Positions 8,747 to 57,500 of a stretch of DNA of 64,000 nucleotides are shown here, piece by piece. The first letter of the stretch is position 1. Each line of letters begins with the position of its first letter. Below the pieces are notes generated by a model. It did not search any database. It had not been told where the DNA came from and saw only the letters and a program-made list of their open reading frames with translations. A program made the translations under genes and the position numbers. The stretch covers positions 566-64,565 of the forward strand of contig JAFGEK010000159.1 in NCBI GenBank assembly GCA_016931625.1, given 5' to 3'. Source of the DNA: Deltaproteobacteria bacterium. GTDB lineage: Bacteria > Myxococcota > XYA12-FULL-58-9 > JAFGEK01.

Positions 8747-8762
8747 CATTTAGGGACACCCC
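8747..8762 (+). repeat. Copy 1 of the dispersed 17-nt motif CATTTAGGGACACCCC
   Basis: Matches exactly the motifs at 19671, at 43467, and in inverted form at 43301. It lies in the divergent intergenic region between thrH and the PAP2 gene. Confidence 0.6.
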
Positions 8763-12045: not shown

Positions 12046-12110
12046 ACTTATGGATGAGGGATCTCAGCCACTAACATCTAAGAACCCTCGTCCCTTCGGC
12101 TTTGTTCATG
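12046..12110 (-). repeat. Truncated copy (D) of the ~79-bp dispersed element, with an internal hairpin GAGGGATC-N18-GAACCCTC
   Basis: On the minus strand the sequence CCGAAGGGACGAGGGTTCTTAGATG resembles the 5' part of element C (CCCGAAGAG..GACGAGGGATCTTATACC). It lies between convergent genes, at the 3' end of the pilW-like gene. Confidence 0.4.
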
Positions 12111-12155
12111 GTTGTCGTGATAATGATCGAAGGGTGGTTGTCTCTATGCGTTTTT

Positions 12156-13241
12156 TTACAAACCTGAATTATCAATAAAGATATAGGTTGGATTTTGTGT
12201 ATTAATGCTATTAGTTTTGACTAATTCAACAAAATCAGTAGAAGGATATATTGGAGGATTACTGCCTGCTTCAGGTGTTTCAGAACGTAAACGCATCTGT
12301 ACTTCAATAGCACAAACATTAGCAAAATCATTTGCTGTTGGTGAGGTAATGGCGTCTGCGCGCGTAAATAAATTATCGTTATTGGTATCATCGCATTGCC
12401 CATCCCCATTTGCATCTAAATAAAATAAAAATCGTAATGCTGCTATGCTGCCAGCATTAGCACCAATTGATAGATCTGCAGCTGCAAGCACCCTAGTGTC
12501 GGCATTGCGTGCAAGTGGTACCTTATTTTGCCCGGCTTGTTCCCAAAAAATGTATGGGTGGGCTACGTCATCAGTGCAATTTACTCCAAAACGTGACACG
12601 CGGGCCCTTAATATAACAGGGACATGTGGTACCGAAGTACTTAAAGTAGGCTGGGTTAAATCAATACGTGGAGCTAGACTCGAATAGTTGGTATTACTAA
12701 TATTGATAGCGGTATTTGCGACAGTACGAGTTGTAGCAACTTGTAACATTCCATAACCATTAGATATAGCACCACTTGAGAAATTTGAATTTTGATAAAA
12801 AAACAACCATTCGTTTTGCGCAATAATAATATCGCTAACACTCGCCGGATCTGGATTTGCTGAAGTTAAGGTAAGAGAATTAGCAGCAGTGCTACTTACT
12901 ATCCATTCACGTAAATAATCTAATGATGCTATCTCAAGCTCAGGTGTGCCAGAGCATTCTGAACCATTAAGGGTAAAACTTCTAATAGCAAATACACGAG
13001 GCAATCCTAAACCTGCATGGTTTATCTCTTGACTAATTATACTTAATGCCGCACGACCACCCCGCTGAATATCGGTGCGGTCAAAAGTTCTTCTGCTGGT
13101 ACGCGTATGACTAATAAGAAATAAAATAATGCCAGAGATAAAAAACATAGTCACCGCTAAACTGATCATCATTTCGATCAATGTCATACCACGAGTATTC
13201 GTATTATTTCGCCAAATTTGTTGTTTAAGATGCTTGTTCAT
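12156..13241 (-). CDS. pilW: Type IV pilus minor pilin, PilW-like (prepilin-type N-terminal cleavage/methylation domain)
   Basis: Leader is MNKHLKQQIWRNNTNTRG, followed by the mature N-terminus MTLIEMMISLAVTMFF (prepilin peptidase motif G|[FM]TLIE). The size of about 360 aa is typical of PilW. Confidence 0.6.
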   Translation of the reverse strand: MNKHLKQQIWRNNTNTRGMTLIEMMISLAVTMFFISGIILFLISHTRTSRRTFDRTDIQRGGRAALSIISQEINHAGLGLPRVFAIRSFTLNGSECSGTPELEIASLDYLREWIVSSTAANSLTLTSANPDPASVSDIIIAQNEWLFFYQNSNFSSGAISNGYGMLQVATTRTVANTAINISNTNYSSLAPRIDLTQPTLSTSVPHVPVILRARVSRFGVNCTDDVAHPYIFWEQAGQNKVPLARNADTRVLAAADLSIGANAGSIAALRFLFYLDANGDGQCDDTNNDNLFTRADAITSPTANDFANVCAIEVQMRLRSETPEAGSNPPIYPSTDFVELVKTNSINTQNPTYIFIDNSGL

Positions 13242-13243
13242 GT

Positions 13244-13723
13244 CTATAAACTCTTGCCGCCTACGACTCGCACGGTACGTACAGTGTTTTTAAAAGATAG
13301 ATCAGTCCAAGAAACCGTTACCGTAATAAGTTTAAATTCTATACCCGCAGCAGTAGTATCAACATCTTGATCGGCTACAAACCACGAGCGTGCAAACCAT
13401 CCATCGGCGCTGCCATAATCACCTGTTGCTGCACCAGTTGGAGTATAGGCAGTTCCACCATAGCCTATATTTTTTCCGCCTGGTTCTATATGGTTACCAG
13501 CAGTTAAATCAGCATTAGTAAATTGCTTGCCCAGAAGCTCATTTAATTTGCTTTGCGCCAACACGGTTGCTTGGGTCATGCGACCAGCAGTAGCTACACC
13601 TTGTGAACCGGAGACTAATAAACGTAACAAACCAAGCGCCCCAAAGGTAAAAACAAACATCGCAACAACAACTTCGATTAAAGTAAAACCTCGTTCATGC
13701 TTTACTCTAAGTAGATGTCGCAT
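13244..13723 (-). CDS. pilV: Type IV pilus minor pilin, PilV-like
   Basis: Leader MRHLLRVKHERG precedes FTLIEVVVAMFVFTFGALGLL, a PilV-like N-terminus. Length is about 160 aa. Confidence 0.6.
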   Translation of the reverse strand: MRHLLRVKHERGFTLIEVVVAMFVFTFGALGLLRLLVSGSQGVATAGRMTQATVLAQSKLNELLGKQFTNADLTAGNHIEPGGKNIGYGGTAYTPTGAATGDYGSADGWFARSWFVADQDVDTTAAGIEFKLITVTVSWTDLSFKNTVRTVRVVGGKSL

Positions 13724-13735
13724 AATCTTCCCACC

Positions 13736-14377
13736 TCAATTGCGTCTGAAGATACGAGCATCGCCACTAGCACCAACAAAAACCAGGGCGTCGATACGTG
13801 CTGATGTTCCTGATGCATCGTAAATTAACACTGCACCACTGGTGCCATTTAAAACAGTGCCATCTTCGATAAAGTTAATATTTCCAGTATTACCGCCGCC
13901 ACAAAAACTACACCAACTACTACTTGCAATACCGTTGTAAGGTACGGGGAAATTTGCACCATAACCTGCAGTTGGGCCAAAGCCCACTTCTGTTGCAGAT
14001 AGTGTTTTGGTTTTTATTAGCGTTTCATAATTTCCGTCACGATCACTATCTTTACGTATATGCCATTGCTGATTAGCGCGATCGACCACAATTTGGTGCG
14101 GCAACGTAGTGCTGCGTGCGAAACCTTGCGCCTCGATAAAACCACCATAAAACTCACGCATCGCCGCACCTACTTGAGAACTACGATAATATCCAATTAG
14201 ATTTGGGGTTGCGATTATAGCAACTATACCAATAATGGCGGCTACCACCATTACTTCAATAAGGGTGAAGCCTATTTCACCTCGACTTTTGTTTCTGCTT
14301 TCATTTCGACTTTCATTTCTGTCATTTCGACTGCAGGAAGAAATCTTATATTGAAGTGGTATAAGATCCCTCGTCAC
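13736..14377 (-). CDS. FimT/GspH-like pseudopilin (prepilin-type N-terminal domain); start uncertain
   Basis: Contains the G|FTLIEVMVVAAIIGIVA prepilin motif at nt 14272-14220 on the minus strand. No in-frame ATG exists between that motif and the repeat element. The nearest candidate start is the in-frame GTG at 14377; the ORF track extends to 14503. The 5' region is encoded by repeat element C, so the true start could lie closer to 14290 via a non-canonical codon. Confidence 0.45.
   Translation of the reverse strand: MTRDLIPLQYKISSCSRNDRNESRNESRNKSRGEIGFTLIEVMVVAAIIGIVAIIATPNLIGYYRSSQVGAAMREFYGGFIEAQGFARSTTLPHQIVVDRANQQWHIRKDSDRDGNYETLIKTKTLSATEVGFGPTAGYGANFPVPYNGIASSSWCSFCGGGNTGNINFIEDGTVLNGTSGAVLIYDASGTSARIDALVFVGASGDARIFRRN
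14299..14377 (-). repeat. Copy C of the ~79-bp dispersed element, immediately upstream of (or within the 5' end of) the fimT-like gene
   Basis: Minus-strand sequence: GTGACGAGGGATCTTATACCACTTCAATATAAGATTTCTTCCTGCAGTCGAAATGACAGAAATGAAAGTCGAAATGAAA. It aligns with copies A and B and shares GAGGGATC-N18-AGATTTCTYCCTRCRGTCGAAATGACA-N10-TCGAAATGA. Confidence 0.7.
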
Positions 14378-14450
14378 TAAAGCTCTTCGGGATGACATTA
14401 GTCGCATTACTCCTCGGGATAACATAAAACGCCAATGCGTATTTTTATTT

Positions 14451-17400
14451 TTAGTGTAACGCATTATGTAACTCACGACTAACATCAAGACGTAAGATTT
14501 CAACTACTAGACTTTGACTACCACTATTTACTTGCAGGGTAGTCAAACCAGAATCACTACTACCGGAAATTAAAGTAGTGGTAGCACCGTGGCTTGTTAT
14601 TACGCTAGTAGTAGCAGGCGCGGCTGGAACACCTTGCCCTAATGAAGCTGATGCATCTGCAACTGTGATCGCATTATCATGATTCCAATCAACGGGTTTA
14701 CCGGTTAACCAATCAAAAGCATAAAGTTTACCATCGCCTTTGCTTTGCGCGGCAGAACAAACATCGCTGCTACCACCGCCACCACAAACCGCAGTGGGAG
14801 CAAATACGGAGTATTCTGCGAATGGTGAAATAGTACCCATGGTTTCAAAGCGTGAAATATTAAATGGGGCCACCACTTTTTCGCCTGCGGGCAACTTGTA
14901 ATACCACCCTCGTGAACTAGAAGTTGCCCAAGTGTTATTAGCAATATTAATTTCGGTTAAATCACTTTCGGTACATGGTCGAGTTACGCTGCTAGTGCTA
15001 CAACTTTCTAAAACCATTGAATAGAGACGTTGTTGGTCACTACAAATATAACCATTAATAGTAGTACTTAATAACGGATTAGGTATAAGGTAGTCACGAT
15101 CACCAGTACCAATAATAATTCGTTCTTTTCCTTGATAACGAGTTAGCGTAGGCGCAAAAAAGAACGGCCACCGCTGGTACTCACTGTTAGCAAGTGTAGT
15201 ATCACCATTTGATGTAATTAGCGGATTGGTAGTTTTAAAAATTACTTGGGGGGTAAAATTAAACACGCCACTTGATAGCGCTGATGCTGGTGTTGGTATA
15301 TGCCAGATCTGCCCGCCGTGATCGGCTGCAACTATGCCTGCCATCATCGGCACCCCACCCTCAGTATTGCGCGCATAAAATACTGGGGTTGCGGGGAATG
15401 AATACTTCATTGTTGCTGTAGCCGAGCTAACCGCATAAGTAACTTTCCATAATACTGCCCCAGTATAGGCATCGAGCATAAATAGTGCGTTACCTTTTAT
15501 ATCGAGTGGATCATACCCGCCTGAAAGTAGCACTACCCATCGATCAACTGCTTTAGTGGCAGGATTATTATCGTGATCCCAAGCTAGTGGACCTATTGAA
15601 GCTGGCGAAGGATAAACATCAAGCCAACTATTGGCCATTAATGCATCTTCACTGCTACTAGGCGCGGGGAATTGCCATAAAAATACAGGATTAGTGGCAT
15701 CAGTAACATCAAGTGCAACATAGCGTTGACCACCATCGCGATGACCATAAATGGCTACCGTTTTCCATTTAGTTTTGTTACTAGCAATATTTTTATCAGC
15801 GGTTGGGTCAATCCAAATATCACGCACCATTACTGAGCCATCAACCATAAATTTATGGTTAGCTAAACCACATGAATGGGTTGCTGGGTTACACATGTCT
15901 TTAAGACGGGGAAGCATCTCAGGGCTCACAAAAGCCCATAATTCTTTACCTAATTCTGGATGAGAAGATGTATCTTCAATGTATGCCCCCCCTATCCCGG
16001 CATTGGCATCCCAAACTCCAGTTAAAAATGCATGCAGCATACCGTCATTAGCACCTACTAACATAACACGCGATCGTGAAGTATAAGTTGATTGAAAACC
16101 TTGATAAGATGCGGTCGCTGCCCAAGCCCCGACATCAGTACTGCCACCAGGACGCTGCAAAGTAGCTGGTATTGAGTGAAAAATATCGCCAAGCTTCCAC
16201 CAGCCATCAATTGGTTGACCACCATGTTGAATATTGTTGAGATTGCGCTCTTCACTAGTATTGGTATCACCGTCGATATCATATACATCTAACCCACGGA
16301 AAAAATTAACCAGCTTTTGCCCATCACTAACTGTCGCCGTGCCTAACTCGGCAAGAAAGCGCGACCCGGTAGTTACATTAGCCTCGGTAAAATCTATTTG
16401 CGTGTATGCAGGTGGTAATGAAGTATCAGGCACCGCTGTTTTAATCACTCGATTGGCTGCAGTTACATAACAAGATGAGACATCAAGGTCGCCTTGATCT
16501 GAAGGAACCACCCCAAGAGTACCTGCAACATCACCTGCTAAACAAAGCGATGAATCCCATAATGGTTTTGAGCTTAAATAGCCATCGCTATCATAAATCG
16601 GTGCGATGGCACCATTTGCATCAAGAATGCAGGTGCTATCACCAGATGGACAAGTGCAAGCATTACCAAGTAATGCAGAATTTGCGACATCACAAAATGT
16701 AAAACCGTAAATATGACCTTCCCACAACGAGAATTCGTCACTGGGGCGAAAAACGGCATTGGCAACCGAAGCTTGACCAGATTGATTAGTAGCAGGGACA
16801 GACGGTGCGGTAAAACCTACGGTGCGATGTAAAATATCTGAAATAATTTCAGTAAGCGCATCACGTAACTCTGCTACACTCGTTGCCGGCAAACATTTTC
16901 CTGAGCCCCCCGTGGCTACATCATCTAATAATCCGTAACATTTAGTTGGGTCAGTTTCATCAGTTATACCGTAACTCACTGCATAGGTTTTAACATCTTG
17001 AAGCCCCGAAATATCTGAACGCATGTCTAATTGGGTTAAGGCATAAGCTACATCATCAACTAATGAACCACCATACTGGTACAATCCTCCAACCATACCT
17101 TGATTTTTATAATAACCGTCACTCATACCAGTGACTTCGCCATTAACAAAAGGCACTCTACTGCCTGCAGTAGCGTCCCACATGGGAAAACCGTCAGTAA
17201 TTAATACCACAAAATTCTTAGCTTGTGTGCAAACTGATGAACCATAGTCGCATATCGGGGTGTTTACACCGGTAGTTGTAGTAAAATATTTGCCAACATT
17301 ATCAAGGGCCATAGCAAGTGGGGTACCCCAATCCAGCGTATAGCCATTATAAAGATAGTTTATCAAATTGCTGTCAGACGGATTAAAACATTGGGTTGCA

Positions 17401-18548
17401 GGATCACCATCAAAGCAAGCAGTGCCTGTAGTTTGCGAACAAGGGGGTTTCACCGCATATTGAATAGAACCGCTACTACCTGTAGCAGGATAATAAATAT
17501 TGCCACTGTCATTAAAATCAGAAATACCAATACGAACGTCGCCGCTCATATTATTTATGGTATCGGTAAAAGCTTTAACTAAGGCCACTACCTTAGTTGG
17601 ATAGAAGTTTAAAAAATCACCTAAGACGTAAGGGTAATCTTTGTTAAGGCCACCGGTAGTAGCACCACTGCCGCCGCTATATGGTATACAATATTTATAA
17701 GAATATTTATAATAATAGCAGCCAGAAATCGAGCAACCGGAGCCGCCTGAACACATTGAACATATGTGACTTTTACATATACCGCTAGTACATTCATAGC
17801 CATGACTACAGTACCCACCTAAATCTGGCGCTGTCGGTGTGGTCGGTGTTGACGAACACATATTTAACGGATCGCCACTAGCGTTATCTGCTGGCTCCCA
17901 AAAATAACCATGCGTACGCATGCTATAAATACAGCGTGATTTTTGATAACAGTTATCAGTAACACTACTACTGCTACAAATAGTGCTAATAACATCGTCA
18001 AATTTATCTTGTTCGGTAGTACCGCTACCGGTGGCTTGTACCGTATACTCAAAAGCGACACTATTGTGAGTGTATATGTTCCAAGGTGGAAACATATCAT
18101 CGGTAGGGCCACTTTTGCGTTCGTCAAAAATCGGATACCTAGTGCCACGATAAGTTGTACCGTCACTGTTATATAAACTGCGATATGGATCAGCAACGCT
18201 GTCACCGGTAACATCCGGGCCGCTTAAGCCTTCTAGTACTGAATTTACACTGATCATAGAACTATTAGGCCCGCTAATCAGCGTCATATTTTGATTTTTG
18301 CTGCATTGTCGTGTACCTGATAAATCTTCACAAATCAGATCGTACATCGAATTTGAACTATCAAACAAGAAAACAATGTTAGGCGGAGCAGTAGAACTTG
18401 TACCAGCACCTGCTTCAAGCAAGTGTAAATCATCAGCAAGCGCAAACTCTACGCCACTAACAAAAAATACGATCGAGGCAATTACAATAACTCGCCAACT
18501 AAAAACTTTAAACAATGCAAAAACAAATGCTCGCATCATCGACTCCAC
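14451..18548 (-). CDS. pilY1: PilY1/PilC-like type IV pilus tip adhesin/biogenesis protein with vWA-like and Cys-rich regions
   Basis: 1365 aa with a signal/TM N-terminus. A vWA-like stretch is present (DVRIGISDFNDSGNIYY ... FVVLITDGFP). A Cys-rich insert is present (CSHGYECTSGICKSHICSMCSGGSGCSISGCYYY). The C-terminal half is beta-propeller-like. Its position between pilX-like and minor pilin genes supports the call. Confidence 0.6.
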   Translation of the reverse strand: MESMMRAFVFALFKVFSWRVIVIASIVFFVSGVEFALADDLHLLEAGAGTSSTAPPNIVFLFDSSNSMYDLICEDLSGTRQCSKNQNMTLISGPNSSMISVNSVLEGLSGPDVTGDSVADPYRSLYNSDGTTYRGTRYPIFDERKSGPTDDMFPPWNIYTHNSVAFEYTVQATGSGTTEQDKFDDVISTICSSSSVTDNCYQKSRCIYSMRTHGYFWEPADNASGDPLNMCSSTPTTPTAPDLGGYCSHGYECTSGICKSHICSMCSGGSGCSISGCYYYKYSYKYCIPYSGGSGATTGGLNKDYPYVLGDFLNFYPTKVVALVKAFTDTINNMSGDVRIGISDFNDSGNIYYPATGSSGSIQYAVKPPCSQTTGTACFDGDPATQCFNPSDSNLINYLYNGYTLDWGTPLAMALDNVGKYFTTTTGVNTPICDYGSSVCTQAKNFVVLITDGFPMWDATAGSRVPFVNGEVTGMSDGYYKNQGMVGGLYQYGGSLVDDVAYALTQLDMRSDISGLQDVKTYAVSYGITDETDPTKCYGLLDDVATGGSGKCLPATSVAELRDALTEIISDILHRTVGFTAPSVPATNQSGQASVANAVFRPSDEFSLWEGHIYGFTFCDVANSALLGNACTCPSGDSTCILDANGAIAPIYDSDGYLSSKPLWDSSLCLAGDVAGTLGVVPSDQGDLDVSSCYVTAANRVIKTAVPDTSLPPAYTQIDFTEANVTTGSRFLAELGTATVSDGQKLVNFFRGLDVYDIDGDTNTSEERNLNNIQHGGQPIDGWWKLGDIFHSIPATLQRPGGSTDVGAWAATASYQGFQSTYTSRSRVMLVGANDGMLHAFLTGVWDANAGIGGAYIEDTSSHPELGKELWAFVSPEMLPRLKDMCNPATHSCGLANHKFMVDGSVMVRDIWIDPTADKNIASNKTKWKTVAIYGHRDGGQRYVALDVTDATNPVFLWQFPAPSSSEDALMANSWLDVYPSPASIGPLAWDHDNNPATKAVDRWVVLLSGGYDPLDIKGNALFMLDAYTGAVLWKVTYAVSSATATMKYSFPATPVFYARNTEGGVPMMAGIVAADHGGQIWHIPTPASALSSGVFNFTPQVIFKTTNPLITSNGDTTLANSEYQRWPFFFAPTLTRYQGKERIIIGTGDRDYLIPNPLLSTTINGYICSDQQRLYSMVLESCSTSSVTRPCTESDLTEINIANNTWATSSSRGWYYKLPAGEKVVAPFNISRFETMGTISPFAEYSVFAPTAVCGGGGSSDVCSAAQSKGDGKLYAFDWLTGKPVDWNHDNAITVADASASLGQGVPAAPATTSVITSHGATTTLISGSSDSGLTTLQVNSGSQSLVVEILRLDVSRELHNALH

Positions 18549-18565
18549 CAGCGAAATCTTCTTAT

Positions 18566-19078
18566 TTACGGCGTAGCAATGCCATAACGTAGTACCAGTT
18601 GGACTTCACGTTCGCCAAAATTAGGCCCCCTACAAGTCGCAGTAGTCGTTATAAAATGAATACCGCTACTTAAATTTGCACCACCACCGCCACCGCCGTA
18701 ATCAAGCTTATTAGTAATATTCACACCTTCAAATGCAGAAGAAAAATCGCCTGAAGTGGCCGCAAGTTCAGTAAACGGTACAGTGGCTGCAACATTATCA
18801 TAATGCCCAGCTTGATAATGCAAAGTATTACCACCACCAATATCAATATCGGCAGCGATTGATTGAGCGCTATTATCAGGAAGTATTGAACGTATATGCT
18901 CAAGCGCCGCGCGTGCACAAGAAGCTGTTACTTCACGCGAGCGAAAGCCGACACTGCTATTTAATTCACTACCAGTAATCGCCACTGCAGCTAAACCGCC
19001 GACTAAAACTATAAGCAAAAGAAAAGTTACTACGATAAGAGCGGCACCGCGCTCGGTCGAAGAAGAATTTTTTTGCAT
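18566..19078 (-). CDS. pilX: PilX-like minor pilin / pilus assembly protein (PilX_N-type N-terminus)
   Basis: The start was chosen at the Met of MQKNSSSTERGAALIVVTFLLLIVLVGGLAAVAITG, a PilX N-terminal-like hydrophobic segment. The ORF track extends to 19297, but that extension is encoded by repeat element A in antisense. No clear Shine-Dalgarno is present. Confidence 0.45.
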   Translation of the reverse strand: MQKNSSSTERGAALIVVTFLLLIVLVGGLAAVAITGSELNSSVGFRSREVTASCARAALEHIRSILPDNSAQSIAADIDIGGGNTLHYQAGHYDNVAATVPFTELAATSGDFSSAFEGVNITNKLDYGGGGGGANLSSGIHFITTTATCRGPNFGEREVQLVLRYGIATP

Positions 19079-19176
19079 ACAAAATCGCTGCTTAAGCTGC
19101 AATTTTCCAATAACCTTTGGTGATGCGGGAAGGTCATCTTGTGGTTCAAAGAGCTCACCATGCTCGGGTGCGCATA

Positions 19177-19255
19177 GGGACGAGGGATCTTTTTCTATTG
19201 GAAAATGAGATTTCTCCCTACGGTCGAAATGACAGGAGGGAGAATCGAAATGACA
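19177..19255 (+). repeat. Copy A of the ~79-bp dispersed element (plus strand, inverted relative to copy C)
   Basis: Sequence: GGGACGAGGGATCTTTTTCTATTGGAAAATGAGATTTCTCCCTACGGTCGAAATGACAGGAGGGAGAATCGAAATGACA. It has two TCGAAATGACA units 21 bp apart. Confidence 0.7.
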
Positions 19256-19331: not shown

Positions 19332-19363
19332 CTATCTGGCTATCTGGCTATCTGGCTATCTGA
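19332..19363. repeat. Octanucleotide microsatellite (CTATCTGG)x3 + CTATCTGA
   Basis: The perfect tandem 8-bp units are directly visible. They lie in the intergenic region upstream of the pilX-like/pilY1-like genes, which are on the minus strand. Confidence 0.8.
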
Positions 19364-19467: not shown

Positions 19468-19670
19468 TGACGCAAATTTTTGCAGGGTGCGCAGGTATGA
19501 TCACATCATCTAAGGTATGTCTGATTTATTAGACACTCTTTTTTTAATAAGCTCACTTAAAATTCTTAAGTTTTTAAGTTTCTGTTCTTTAAATCTTCAT
19601 TTTTTTAACTTGGTATTTAAAGAATTTAAGAATAGGGAACGGGGAATGAAAGGCGATGATATAGCTGAAA

Positions 19671-19687
19671 CATTTAGGGACACCCCC
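19671..19687 (+). repeat. Copy 2 of the 17-nt motif CATTTAGGGACACCCCC, immediately 3' of the nuoK stop
   Basis: It exactly matches the other copies. Confidence 0.6.
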
Positions 19688-19692
19688 AAGCT

Positions 19693-20016
19693 TTATACAT
19701 CTTCACGCAATGAATCTAACTCATTTATATCAAGCGTTTGTTTGGTGCGAAACACGCCAATAATAATAGCTAGCCCCACTGCTGCTTCGGCTGCTGCTAT
19801 TGCAATTACAAAGAGAGCTAGTACATGACCACCAACGTCGCCATACTGTTTTGCGTAGGTGAGAAATAACAAATTGGCTGCATTTAGCATGAGTTCAACA
19901 CACATAAGCACTACTATCGCATTACGACGCATAATCGCACCAATCATACCAATAGCAAACAAACCCCCAGCGAGTGCAATAAAATGAGTTGAACTGATAG
20001 TGGTAATTGTGCTCAC
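19693..20016 (-). CDS. nuoK: NADH-quinone oxidoreductase subunit K
   Basis: 107 aa with three TM helices. The conserved MCVELMLNAANLLFL segment is present. Confidence 0.85.
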   Translation of the reverse strand: MSTITTISSTHFIALAGGLFAIGMIGAIMRRNAIVVLMCVELMLNAANLLFLTYAKQYGDVGGHVLALFVIAIAAAEAAVGLAIIIGVFRTKQTLDINELDSLREDV

Positions 20017-25203: not shown

Positions 25204-25409
25204 CCAGAAGCAATAACTACTTCTTGCACAGCTTCAGCATGCAAACGCGGTATAGTCTCATCACCGCCAGCGGCCATACGACTTGTGCGTGCCAATACTT
25301 TAGATTGTTTTAAGTCTATCAATTCTTAACTTACTGTTTTTATTTAGATAAAAAATCTATTTAATTAATCGTTTGACAGCAAGTAAGGCTCTACATTATG
25401 GCCTTTTTT

Positions 25410-25612
25410 CGTAACCGGTGCCTACCATACGAAAGTGTGAGGCATAATAGGGAACCTGGTGAAAATCCAGGACTGCCCCGCAGCGGTAAGTGAAAACGAA
25501 GTCCACACATAGCACTGGCTAATTATGCTGGGAAGCTGTGGGCAATAGGAAGACGACAACAACTAATTGTGTGTCGTTAAGCTCACAAGCCCGAAGACCT
25601 GCCGGTACCTGA
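25410..25612 (+). ncRNA. Cobalamin (B12) riboswitch in the nrdD leader
   Basis: The conserved core is GGTGCC..AATAGGGAA..GGTGAAAATCC..ACTGCCCCGCAGCGGTAAG (25417-25492). The B12 box is AGCCCGAAGACCTGCC (25588-25603). A GCCTC-GCGG-GAGGC hairpin precedes the RBS. Confidence 0.8.
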
Positions 25613-25677
25613 TCTCAGAGAGAAAACTGAGACTGTCTATTAACCTTACGGCCTCGCGGGAGGCAAAAGGAGTAGCA

Positions 25678-43300: not shown

Positions 43301-43483
43301 GGGGGTGTCCCTAAATGTTGGACTTAAGAAATTCATGAAAGCCTCGTAAACGATGGCTGCGCGCTTAAGCAAAATCATGCAAAAGGCTTGCTTGTGGCAA
43401 GTTGCAGGCAGGATTTCTGCGAGCAAGCGGTCGTAAGTAGCGGATTTCGTGAAGATCGACGGGAGACATTTAGGGACACCCCC
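43301..43483. repeat. MITE-like unit: 17-nt motif CATTTAGGGACACCCCC in inverted orientation at both ends of a 183-bp structured segment
   Basis: The left end is GGGGGTGTCCCTAAATG (43301-43317). The right end is CATTTAGGGACACCCCC (43467-43483). The interior is rich in short inverted repeats (GCTTGCTTG ... CGAGCAAGC). It lies 3' of the zinc-ribbon/TPR gene. Confidence 0.5.
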
Positions 43484-54632: not shown

Positions 54633-57500
54633 ATGCAAAAAAGCACATTGACCTCAGGCAATTGCCTGTTACGATGTGGTTCTATGTGGTCACGATTAAT
54701 TTTAATTACTGCTTTCACGTCTGCCACCTTGCCTGCCTATGCCTGGCAAGAACAATTCGGTCCCTTTGGTCCATCCTATGTGGGTCGTTTAGACTTTGTT
54801 TTTGTTGGTGCTTCACTTACCGACAATCAAGGTTTGCAAAACGGGGTGAATTGTTTAAAAAGCTCGGCCACGGCTACCGTGCGTAAAAGTGCTTTGCCGC
54901 AAAATCCCAAACTGATTGCTGCCATATTATATATCGGAGGCTCACTAATTGATGAAATCGATACACAAGGTCAACCAATACCAGATTATGATAATGATGA
55001 TGCTAATATTTTTCAACAGGGCGTAACTTTTCCAACAGACGGCATAATCTTTCACTCAGATTATATTGCCAGCACATTTCCTGATTTTGTCGCCATTGAT
55101 GCCTTAGCTGCTACTCCACGTTCGGTGCGCTTTTTACCACCTGGTGCGGCTAACGCGGTAACTGTAACTAACGACGGCATTCGTGGACCATATAGCAGCG
55201 TTTTGTTTAAATATGGGGGCCCCGAACAAGGCAATCTGGCTTTCTTTTTAACTCCTATCGATGTCACTAAAGTAATTCTCGATAATGGAGGCGTTCTTGA
55301 AGGTGATTATGAAGTTAGTGGTTTGTTAGCAGATGTTTGTCACGGCAAAGAAGTAATTTGTTCTGATGAGCCTAATGCAAAAACTTGTGCGACTAATCCC
55401 GGCTCTACTATAGATACCAATGGCGCTGCCTCGTTTGCTTTATTTTTGATGGTTGAAGATCTTAGCTTGCCACAACGTTCTATCACCGTTTTTGAAGGAC
55501 TAAGCGATATTCTTAATTATCCTAATGGGTTGCTGCATGAAACCCTTAACCTTAACAGCCCAATATCGAGCCCTGCTTCAGGAACCCTCGCTTTTTATGG
55601 TTTAGAAGGCGACCTTTTAGTGCCATTAACACCTACAGCGTTCGGACCTGGATGCGCTGGTAGCACCACCATAATTGATGAATATATACAAGTTAATGGT
55701 CATGGCGATGCCACGCCAGAAGCAGGTGGGATTTGCCTTTATGACGATGACAACCCCTATAACAACATCTTTAATGCAACGATAAATCAAGAACCTAGTA
55801 ATGGCGATGAACTGCGTTGCACACCTGATGAACCAAGCAACCCAGATATTCGTTGTTGCAAAGGCGATAGTCTTTGCGGCGTGGTAGGAGTTGATATTGA
55901 TCGCTTCAATATATCTGACGCCCTTACTCCTGGCGTCACCAAAGTTGATACCTGGTTACACTCAAGTAGTGACGAATTTTATTTAGCCGCGATGATATTA
56001 GGTATTGATGTATTTGCGCCGACCCTAAAAACCGATACGCAAATTCGGGTACTTAATGCTGACGTTAATAATAATGTACGCATTGGCACTCAAGTTATTT
56101 ACTCAATTGCCATTAGCAATACTGGTAATGTTGCGGCGACGAACGTTCGGGTAAGTATGGATGCTCCAAGTGGGGTAACTGATTTTACCGTGCAAATAAT
56201 ACCTGCTGGCGCGCAAAATTTGTCGTCAGCCACTGCTGGCAGCGCCCACACTGGCCGCATTGATGTTAATGGGTTTAGTGTTAATCCCGGCAAAGTGGCG
56301 GAAATCCGCTTTGCCGTAACTACCACCTGCCATGCTAATACCTATCTTAATGCTACCGCCCAAATTAGTGCTAATGAGATTACCGCATTTGATGTTGACG
56401 CTCCTTTGCTTGCTTTGCGTGGGCCCGGTGATGATGATAGCGATTGCCGCAACATCGATATTGATGGACCGTTTGCCTTACACGAAGACCCAACTAAAGT
56501 CCTTAGAGGTGGTGGTGGTTGTAATTCATTGACTGCTAATAACTTCTCAACCCCAGCATTAACCAGCATTTTAGTTTTATTATTCATGTTCGCTATTATA
56601 CGTCGCTTTAATCAACGAACGTTGCTTTCTATTATGTCATCCCGACGAATGTTAGTGAGGAGGGATCTTACCCACCTTCAAACCAAGATTTCTCCCTACG
56701 GTCGAAATGACAAAAGTAAAATTCGAAATAATAAAAAAAATTGCGCGTCTTTAATTACCATTACTGCCTTACTTATTTTTATATTATCATTTATTACTGC
56801 TTGCGGTAGTCGTCATAAAACACCATCTAATGACACGACTATTGATGTTATCACACCTGAGGATCCGCTGCCTGGCACGGCATGTAATTTGCCCTTAATG
56901 GTTGAAGTTATTCGTGTTGATGATTCACGTTTTTGTATTGATCGCTTCGAAGCTAGTATTGACGATGGCAACTTAGGTCAAACCCATCAGGGTTACAATG
57001 ATGACACGATAATGACTAACGATGGTTCGACTCTTGCTAAAGCAACTATCGGTATTGGCATAGCACCGCGAGCTAATGTTAGTTGGTATCAAGCGATGGC
57101 CGCCTGTGCTAATGCTGGTAAACATCTTTGCAGCACCACTGACTGGGAACGCGCCTGTCGTGCTGCTGCTGGCAATGTCTATCCATATGGCAATGTTTAT
57201 ACTGAAACCTTATGCAATGGCTTTTTTGCTTATGCTGCAGACAAACCTGCAGTAACCGGATCATTTGTTAGCTGCGTTAGTAGTATAGGTGCTTATGATA
57301 TGTCTGGCAATCTTGAAGAATGGACTGCCAGCGCTGTTGAACGTCAACCTGGTTTAACTATTTTAAATGACCGTGCGGTGCGTGGAGGTGGATATGCTGC
57401 TAACGCCAAAGCCTTGGCGTGCTCAGGCTCTGAATACCACGCACCCCCAGGCGAGGCTTTTGCAGACCGTGGTTTTCGTTGCTGTGTTGATTTGCCGTAA
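54633..57500 (+). CDS. Single 955-aa ORF: N-terminal secreted DUF11/CARDB-like repeat region, then repeat-element-encoded linker, then C-terminal lipoprotein-like segment with FGE-sulfatase (SUMF1-type) domain
   Basis: A signal peptide is present (MWSRLILITAFTSATLPAYA). A DUF11-like segment is present (IGTQVIYSIAISNTGNVAATNVRVSMDAP). A hydrophobic segment lies at aa ~640-665. Element B (56654-56733) is read in frame. A lipobox-like segment follows (ALLIFILSFITACGS). The FGE-type motifs GAYDMSGNLEEWT, RGGGYA and RGFRCC are present. No in-frame stop separates the halves, so this may be a fusion or two genes with an unrecognised start. Confidence 0.45.
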   Translation: MQKSTLTSGNCLLRCGSMWSRLILITAFTSATLPAYAWQEQFGPFGPSYVGRLDFVFVGASLTDNQGLQNGVNCLKSSATATVRKSALPQNPKLIAAILYIGGSLIDEIDTQGQPIPDYDNDDANIFQQGVTFPTDGIIFHSDYIASTFPDFVAIDALAATPRSVRFLPPGAANAVTVTNDGIRGPYSSVLFKYGGPEQGNLAFFLTPIDVTKVILDNGGVLEGDYEVSGLLADVCHGKEVICSDEPNAKTCATNPGSTIDTNGAASFALFLMVEDLSLPQRSITVFEGLSDILNYPNGLLHETLNLNSPISSPASGTLAFYGLEGDLLVPLTPTAFGPGCAGSTTIIDEYIQVNGHGDATPEAGGICLYDDDNPYNNIFNATINQEPSNGDELRCTPDEPSNPDIRCCKGDSLCGVVGVDIDRFNISDALTPGVTKVDTWLHSSSDEFYLAAMILGIDVFAPTLKTDTQIRVLNADVNNNVRIGTQVIYSIAISNTGNVAATNVRVSMDAPSGVTDFTVQIIPAGAQNLSSATAGSAHTGRIDVNGFSVNPGKVAEIRFAVTTTCHANTYLNATAQISANEITAFDVDAPLLALRGPGDDDSDCRNIDIDGPFALHEDPTKVLRGGGGCNSLTANNFSTPALTSILVLLFMFAIIRRFNQRTLLSIMSSRRMLVRRDLTHLQTKISPYGRNDKSKIRNNKKNCASLITITALLIFILSFITACGSRHKTPSNDTTIDVITPEDPLPGTACNLPLMVEVIRVDDSRFCIDRFEASIDDGNLGQTHQGYNDDTIMTNDGSTLAKATIGIGIAPRANVSWYQAMAACANAGKHLCSTTDWERACRAAAGNVYPYGNVYTETLCNGFFAYAADKPAVTGSFVSCVSSIGAYDMSGNLEEWTASAVERQPGLTILNDRAVRGGGYAANAKALACSGSEYHAPPGEAFADRGFRCCVDLP
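56654..56733 (+). repeat. Copy B of the ~79-bp dispersed element, located inside the 955-aa ORF
   Basis: Sequence: TAGTGAGGAGGGATCTTACCCACCTTCAAACCAAGATTTCTCCCTACGGTCGAAATGACAAAAGTAAAATTCGAAATAATA. The 27-mer AGATTTCTCCCTACGGTCGAAATGACA is identical to copy A. Confidence 0.7.

Follow-up and report, generated by a model that had tools for sequence, protein, structure and literature searches.

TGTC-tagged hairpin pairs in a deltaproteobacterial contig are probably gene-less members of the Ssn-associated class of repeats

Repetitive extragenic palindromic (REP) sequences fall into two superfamilies, CGTC-tagged and GTAG-tagged (Di Nocera, De Gregorio and Rocco 2013, BMC Genomics 14:522, PMC3733652). 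Members of the CGTC class often carry TGTC, and can carry CCTC, in place of CGTC, have a stem that opens with A-T and a short tail, and occur mainly as head-to-head dimers with the tags outside and spacers of tens of nucleotides. The canonical form has an 8-9-bp stem, a 4-5-nt loop and a CCA tail, and the same paper, which distinguishes four families, mentions non-complementary residues, set in lowercase, and unusual loops. Its hosts belong to five phyla, Bacteroidetes and Chlorobi included, it takes in Neisseria dRS3 and Rickettsia RPE-4 and RPE-6, in-frame intragenic members exist, and no transposase was known for it in 2013 (PMC3733652). Chenal et al. (2025, Nat Commun 16:2388, PMC11893778) showed that a small GIY-YIG protein, SsnA, binds and cuts the Neisseria NTS (CGTCATTCCCGCGMAVGCGGGAATCYRG), a sequence within which dRS3 lies. 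SsnA consists of a single GIY-YIG domain of ~100 aa, binds the hairpin and cuts just upstream of it; its substrate is single-stranded DNA only, neither double-stranded DNA nor RNA (PMC11893778). For cutting, the three bases (GTC) that precede the palindrome are important, and for binding the C that follows it; ssn genes across phyla have their own cognate hairpin motifs on their flanks (PMC11893778). Here we analyse a set of repeats in a 64,000-nt stretch of DNA, referred to below as the window, which comprises positions 566-64,565 of contig JAFGEK010000159.1 in the metagenome-assembled genome (MAG) GCA_016931625.1 of a Deltaproteobacteria bacterium. Three copies (A, B and C) and one possible fragment (D) are present, and we consider it likely that the copies are gene-less head-to-head pairs of TGTC-tagged REP hairpins of the Ssn-associated class (NTS or "Ssn-related motifs", SRM). 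The elements belong to a known cross-phylum repeat family and are not regulators of the pilus genes.

Anatomy of the copies

The initial annotation described a ~79-bp element with one stem and two half-sites that resembled nothing in textbooks. The shared core on which it relied is real: AGATTTCTYCCTRCRGTCGAAATGACA has exactly three matches in the window, at 14320-14346(-), 19208-19234(+) and 56686-56712(+), while shuffled sequences are expected to give none. The shorter string GAGGGATCT matches four times against 0.07 expected, and one of these matches is D at 12056. The extent had been set too short. B and C both begin with TGTCATCCCGA, at 56635 in B and at minus-strand position 14397 in C. 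Their 5' ends lie ~20 nt beyond those first described, and the two copies align over 107 nt with 78% identity. Each copy spans TGTCAT to ATGACA and is an inverted pair of hairpin modules of ~28-35 nt whose TGTC tags point outward, rather than a single stem followed by two half-sites. The module plan reads TGTC, AT(YYC), GA, a variable inner segment or tip, GA, (GRR)AT and C. In B and C, the left module pairs ATCCC with GGGAT around an 18-nt inner segment, the right module pairs ATTTC with GAAAT around an 11-nt inner segment, and a 15-nt spacer separates the two modules with the tags outside. These pairs within the modules, and not the stem proposed earlier between AGGGATCT and AGATTTCTCCCT, are the conserved ones. 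Thermodynamic folding of single copies returns one long hairpin as the minimum-energy fold; the arms of such a long hairpin would mismatch, whereas each local hairpin is perfect. What is conserved is the individual module.

A covariance model built from 62 modules found elsewhere together with the five window modules, and run over the window with filters off, detected exactly five complete modules and nothing else at E<1 (Table 1). All five begin with TGTC, and the two modules of copy C score 28.3 and 33.7 bits. Copy A has one complete module, and the remnant of its left module was not detected as a module by this model. D had been taken for a truncated copy. Its 9-mer and an imperfect inverted partner are present and may mark a former dimer centre, but the covariance model does not detect it, and D is at best a decayed remnant. 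The short open reading frames (ORFs) pointed out in each copy do exist; the ATGACA tag, being conserved, yields them trivially, and the peptides they encode bear no relation to each other. Searching the literature with raw sequence strings returned primers only. By their anatomy the elements are of a described kind, namely REP-type repeats of the CGTC/TGTC superfamily (PMC3733652), a class that has been linked to Ssn nucleases (PMC11893778).

Table 1. Repeat units and associated genes in the window (window coordinates; for right modules the strand is that of the tag)
Feature	Coordinates	Strand	Description
D, possible decayed dimer centre	12052..12092	+	GAGGGATCT, 15 nt, AAGAACCCTC; without tag and outer arms
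FimT-like prepilin ORF	13736..14503	-	Pfam N_methyl; C lies in the N-terminal extension; mature part from G/FTLIE
Echo of C	14299..14309	-	TCGAAATGAAA; 21 nt from right-module tag
Copy C, head-to-head dimer	14320..14397	-	Sequence, covariance model, match to B
Copy C, right module	14320-14347	+	TGTCATTTCGACTGCAGGAAGAAATCTT
Copy C, left module	14363-14397	-	TGTCATCCCGAAGAGCTTTAGTGACGAGGGATCTT
Second echo of C	14414..14424	-	TGTTATCCCGA; 27 nt upstream of left module
PilX-like gene	18566..19078	-	ATG giving normal leader MQKNSSSTERG/AALIVV
Copy A, left-module remnant	19175..19190	+	3' half alone, TAGGGACGAGGGATCT; tag and 5' arm lost
Copy A, complete right module	19207..19234	-	TGTCATTTCGACCGTAGGGAGAAATCTC; 39.2 bits
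Echo of A	19245..19255	+	TCGAAATGACA; 21 nt from right-module tag
Host gene of B	54633..57500	+	DUF11-like repeats and FGE/SUMF1 domain; conserved two-domain protein, 955-aa ORF
Copy B, head-to-head dimer	56635..56712	+	
Copy B, left module	56635-56669	+	TGTCATCCCGACGAATGTTAGTGAGGAGGGATCTT
Copy B, right module	56685-56712	-	Covariance model
Degenerate echo of B	56723..56733	+	TCGAAATAATA; 21 nt from tag

Alignment confirms the opposite orientation of A and C, which bracket 4.8 kb containing pilX and pilY1. This arrangement is what recombination arms of an invertible pilX-pilY1 segment would look like, and it is the only feature in favour of that idea, to which we attach almost no credence. The arms measure merely 79 nt with 78% identity, there is no recombinase gene nearby, and neither arm differs from an ordinary member of a dispersed family. 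A Logan contig, which is the sole independent assembly of the locus, has the same orientation and breaks inside A. That contig (SRR13394437) ends within the copy in a manner consistent with a break at a dispersed repeat, which illustrates how such repeats break assemblies.

Distribution of the modules and their GIY-YIG neighbours

When one genome per species was scanned with the pattern TTTCTNCCTNCNGTCGAAATGA, the same modules were present at no fewer than 120 loci, in species of many phyla. Hosts among the matches listed include Flavobacterium, Pedobacter, Ignavibacteria, Desulfobacterota, Nitrospirales, Riflebacteria, Luteimonas, Anaerolineae and a Bathyarchaeota MAG. When modules were chosen by tag, GA steps and tail alone, with pairing not required, a perfect 5-bp stem was still present in 210 of 269 distinct modules. 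In a separate count that likewise left pairing unconstrained, arms that depart from the common ATTTC form mostly carry their own exact complement and not the majority GAAAT: 13 of 19 modules with an ATTCC arm (GAAAT in 0 of 19), seven of 12 with ATCTC (GAAAT in one) and four of seven with ATTCT (GAAAT in none). The module stem covaries, and the window modules, with ATCCC/GGGAT on the left and ATTTC/GAAAT on the right, likewise indicate that the local hairpins are what is conserved.

The bases around the stem are also constrained. In related loci among the matches listed, T precedes the GTC tag in 237 of 285 modules and the tail C is kept in 261 of 285, while the base after it varies; the window modules end in CTT or CTC. 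Across 67 aligned modules, those of the window included, the first stem A and the closing T and C are invariant, and T occupies the second position of the stem in 90% or more. Alignment A4, with the window modules among its sequences, shows no variation at the G, T and C of the tag or at the C that follows the stem.

Among the element loci in the matches listed, 86 dimers are head-to-head (tags outside), 16 tail-to-tail (tags inside) and four head-to-tail (tandem), with a median spacer of 28 nt. Only 11 of these 86 head-to-head dimers lie in a stop-free frame of at least 200 codons, compared with 1811 of 2400 random windows (75%). Most members of the family thus lie between genes and a minority within them. 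When ORFs of 90 aa or longer from the 120 element loci among the matches listed were clustered all against all, no neighbour gene recurred. Some loci depart from the simple dimer. In a Polaribacter MAG (L034, 1-239), the right-module sequence forms a 72-nt tandem array of at least four units and no dimers. In L003, L007, L014, L077, L099, L116 and L120, several of them from Desulfobacterota, the dimer is nested in longer, lineage-specific inverted repeats such as GTAAAAAGTC...GACTTTTTAC; either other palindromes serve as insertion sites for the dimers or these lineages have a larger mobile unit.

The original description also pointed to paired units 21 bp apart in each copy. A second TCGAAATGA-like unit does follow downstream at a distance of exactly 21 nt in A, B and C; A has it without mismatch, C with one mismatch, and in B it reads TCGAAATAATA. 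That spacing stands, but it provides no evidence for a dimeric operator. Each such echo is a truncated module consisting of the tag and 5' arm alone, and among the matches listed echoes accompany 33 of 526 full modules in many lineages at distances of 17-31 nt, with two at ~40 nt. Echo-bearing loci include L037, L181, L152 and L107, and some echoes make tandem units of 22-25 nt. Control of a pilus or secretion regulon through pairs of TCGAAATGACA half-sites 21 bp apart could draw on the constancy of this distance and on the placement of three among the four copies no more than 7 kb from the minor-pilin cluster, and we still judge it highly improbable. The same sequence stands beside unrelated genes in at least 120 species, B lies inside an unrelated gene, and stem covariation favours a hairpin over a duplex operator.

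What does recur beside the modules, in a subset of loci, is a small nuclease gene. A 105-aa GIY-YIG ORF lies between dimers in a Flavobacterium element locus, and GIY-YIG genes stand directly beside elements in L106, L110 and L007; of the GIY-YIG genes at element loci, two came from a motif scan at a lower length cut-off and the rest from tblastn. The flanking protein matches Pfam PF01541 (GIY-YIG) at 2.6e-16, and NCBIfam holds no specific model for it. Its single relative on a gonococcal chromosome (filed among plasmids) is a 94-aa GIY-YIG ORF, the N. gonorrhoeae SsnA orthologue, with 16 flanking NTS copies. The two proteins share 41% identity (BLASTP E 1e-22), and this identity to an NTS-flanked ORF ties the flanking proteins to SsnA.

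The association also holds when it is approached from the nuclease. An alignment of relatives of the Flavobacterium protein was used to fetch 80 metagenomic loci, each with the ~100-aa gene. A tagged hairpin lies within 400 nt of the gene in 71 of the 80 loci and on both sides in 51, both flanks being available in 71 of the 80. Hairpin density is 3.98 per kb near the gene and 0.48 per kb further away. The stems vary from locus to locus (ATTTC, ATTCC, ATTCT, ATCCC, ATGCC, ATCTC and others) yet remain self-complementary, and the gene typically sits between a plus-strand and a minus-strand module, which is the position of the dimer's spacer. Some of these flanking modules are very close to those of the window. 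The module at L155 has the same sequence as the right module of A, and the right module of B departs from it at the last tail base alone; the module at L187 matches the left module of C at 27 of 35 positions. At L186, classical CGTC...CCA hairpins surround a homologous GIY-YIG gene. Since window-type modules flank SsnA homologues elsewhere, the gene-less window elements can be read as non-autonomous partners of an Ssn-type system. Of the three interpretations offered at the outset, only that of a small non-autonomous mobile repeat fits this evidence.

Two transposase-based schemes would also yield short, dispersed inverted pairs. REPIN-type elements, like the GTAG REP doublets of Pseudomonas and E. 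coli, are mobilised by RAYT (a Y1 HUH transposase) and share the overall architecture, with a spacer between two inverted palindromic units and a dispersed, largely intergenic distribution. It is very unlikely that the window elements are of this type, as their tag is TGTC and not GTAG, and a relative of the E. coli RayT occurs in one of the 120 element loci among the matches listed, 6 kb from the element. Di Nocera et al. found no tyrosine transposase with CGTC repeats on its flanks (PMC3733652), while GIY-YIG genes adjoin the elements directly at the three loci named above and the reverse search for hairpins around GIY-YIG genes was strongly positive. Derivation as a miniature inverted-repeat element from a DDE-transposase insertion sequence with TGT...ACA ends would account for the small size, for the terminal inverted repeat TGTCAT...ATGACA and for subterminal repeats of tag and arm, which resemble multiple transposase-binding sites. 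We regard it as extremely unlikely. None of A, B and C shows a target-site duplication, distant inverted modules enclose no transposase gene at any locus among the matches listed, and the sole gene found inside such pairs is the GIY-YIG nuclease. Covarying stems within the arms are likewise unexpected for DDE ends.

Several results weigh against assigning the window elements to the Ssn-associated class. There is no GIY-YIG gene in the 64-kb window, and only this contig was searched, so that a cognate Ssn in the organism is inferred. Two ORFs beside A that were considered as ssn candidates (19517-19828 and 19693-20016) are not GIY-YIG genes, and the second is NuoK-like. The flanking proteins at other loci, candidates for the Ssn family (CDD cd10448, GIY-YIG_unchar_3), are linked to Ssn by the Pfam GIY-YIG match and gonococcal homology. 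The published SRM pattern as transcribed, HGTCWYN(0-2)YYVSBRHN(0-5)WNVSBRGN(0-2)RNCYNB, matches NTS but has no match in the window and covers two of the 276 hairpins beside GIY-YIG genes; the window modules escape it because of the GA step after the 5-bp arm. As single-stranded DNA, B and C fold no better than shuffled sequences (z -1.0 and -0.5, respectively). Mismatches of the G.T and A.C kinds in the stems number eight and seven, which gives no strand signal.

The last two results also count against a function at the RNA level, in which the hairpins would be transcribed with the pilus operon and serve as mRNA stabilisers, attenuators or processing sites, as some classical REPs do. From their positions, A 5' of pilX and C at the junction of pilY1 with the FimT-like gene, both copies would be part of a transcript; single-strand folding is good around A (z -3.9), and many REPs have been argued to act as RNA (PMC3733652). 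On the other hand, Rfam gives no gathering-score match to the elements over the window and none even at E<=10 over copy C, the copies occur in either orientation relative to genes, and SsnA does not bind the RNA form (PMC11893778). The proposal of a structured 5' leader, for which an Rfam comparison had been suggested, is further weakened by two of the three full copies (B and C) lying within reading frames. As the main function of these repeats, an RNA role is improbable; as a side effect, it is possible and would be compatible with an Ssn-associated origin.

If the elements are Ssn-associated repeats, the cognate Ssn would be encoded outside these 64 kb in the same genome, and the dimers would spread as non-autonomous copies through an Ssn-dependent or another single-strand mechanism. 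B and C share both the spacer and a flanking echo, which suggests that the whole 107-nt unit was copied within this genome. The prediction that follows is that the Deltaproteobacteria MAG should encode an Ssn-type nuclease. More generally, a subclass found widely on the flanks of SsnA homologues, across many phyla, escapes the published SRM pattern, and surveys of Ssn systems probably undercount them. A bolder proposal goes further. GA-bulged TGTC hairpins might form a very large cross-phylum subclass of Ssn substrates missed by the published motif, in which compact hairpin-ssn-hairpin units, with the gene in the spacer of a head-to-head dimer, are autonomous elements and gene-less dimers their miniature derivatives, so that a GIY-YIG nuclease would mobilise a new class of single-stranded DNA transposon. 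The copies that bracket pilX-pilY1 might then mark an adhesin module for Ssn-dependent control of its exchange through transformation, a role likened to that of NTS-gene-NTS arrangements in Neisseria. We offer this proposal tentatively and consider it unlikely.

Copies in coding sequence and other features of the window

Copy B lies inside the 955-aa ORF, as first reported, and is translated in frame as ..MSSRRMLVRRDLTHLQTKISPYGRND... NCBI annotates the gene as a single 938-aa SUMF1/EgtB/PvdO-family protein of a Deltaproteobacteria MAG. Its full-length homologues (847-897 aa) align with it over nearly the whole length and have no B, and the window protein has ~45 extra residues (FNQRTLLSIMSSRRMLVRRDLTHLQTKISPYGRNDKSKIRNNKK) in a short basic loop between two hydrophobic segments. 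The absence of B from these homologues identifies it as a true in-frame insertion. A division of the ORF into two genes was considered, namely an upstream protein with a GlyGly-CTERM-like end and a lipoprotein that would start at the tag ATG after a +1 slip in an A8 run. It was rejected because the 847-897-aa homologues keep the same internal junction in one ORF. In all full-length homologues (P0005-P0018, alignment A2), this junction consists of LRGGGG, a hydrophobic segment, RR(R), a second hydrophobic segment and C-G-x-R-H. It resembles a GlyGly-CTERM-type sorting signal followed by a lipobox, and the protein may be processed into two parts.

Copy C had been placed in a free 160-bp gap; instead, the frame through C is open into the FimT-like gene. 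There is no ATG, GTG or TTG between C and GFTLIE, and if the gene is expressed, translation must therefore begin in or before the element. The FimT-like homologues measure 185-195 aa, with leaders of 3-16 aa in seven of the eight read and of 28 aa in the remaining one. In an expressed gene, the extra residues encoded by C would be removed along with the prepilin leader. We also considered, and provisionally rejected, a frameshifted native start (ATG AAA GCA..., MKAETKVEVK). The in-frame ..KSRGEIG/FTLIE resembles the basic leaders of the homologues and the alternative frame does not. Copy A lies ~100-180 nt upstream of the pilX ATG, in a frame that happens to stay open to 19297.

The dimer has a single open frame among its six, and this accounts for the shared reading frame of B and C. 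Copies would persist only where they are harmless, either between genes or in this single open frame. Survival restricted to harmless sites would explain both B, in a loop between hydrophobic segments, and C, in a prepilin leader that is cleaved. The two copies provide clean cases of a REP-type dimer tolerated in coding sequence, one in a basic loop and the other in a leader removed on maturation. Across the family most reading frames are open, which creates spurious small ORFs and artificially extended genes, and recognising such repeats prevents this kind of mis-annotation.

The window holds further features. A cobalamin riboswitch lies at 25399-25620(+) (Rfam RF00174; 110 bits, where the gathering score is 31.5). 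An unrelated repeat, the exact 16-mer CATTTAGGGACACCCC, occurs in four copies against zero expected, at 8747-8762(+), 19671-19686(+), 43302-43317(-) and 43467-43482(+), and the latter two form an inverted pair around ~150 nt (43302-43482). The octamer CTATCTGG forms a perfect tandem of 3.9 copies at 19332-19362, between the nuoK-like and pilX-like genes and ~80 nt from A; it is possibly a slippage tract.

Comparison with known repeat systems

Palindromes that enter proteins are also known from Rickettsia, where palindromic elements insert in frame and add a peptide segment. RPE-1 measures ~100-150 bp and is specific to that genus. Copy B resembles these elements in that a palindrome is tolerated within an ORF whose frame stays unbroken; here, a single clear intragenic case is seen. 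The likeness to REPIN/RAYT systems and BIMEs is broader. Both comprise non-autonomous inverted doublets of short palindromes with a spacer, and in both a single-copy gene is flanked by its own repeats. In contrast, the tag here is TGTC and not GTAG, and the partner is a GIY-YIG nuclease and not a HUH tyrosine transposase.

The window modules share with CGTC REPs the unpaired TGTC tag, A-T at the first two stem positions and, apparently, a short unpaired tail. They also form head-to-head dimers that are mostly intergenic, with some in-frame intragenic members, in several phyla including Bacteroidetes. Set against the text description of canonical CGTC REPs, two stem positions are non-complementary here; the right modules can be drawn with nine stem positions, two of them non-complementary (G.A and A.G), and a 3-nt loop. 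The 18-nt inner segments of the left modules and the CTT/CTC tail in place of CCA also depart from the canonical form. Like NTS, the modules have a unit length of 28 nt, a (C/T)GTC tag, a stem running from AT to AT and a C right after the stem. They differ from it in a 5-bp stem with a tandem G.A/A.G step and a variable tip of 3 to >30 nt instead of a perfect 8-bp stem, in the predominance of TGTC as the tag, in the CT(T/C) tail and in the lack of an ssn gene in the window. As in the NTS/SsnA system, the modules are dispersed in many copies and stand on either side of small single-domain GIY-YIG genes, whose products show homology to the gonococcal SsnA orthologue.

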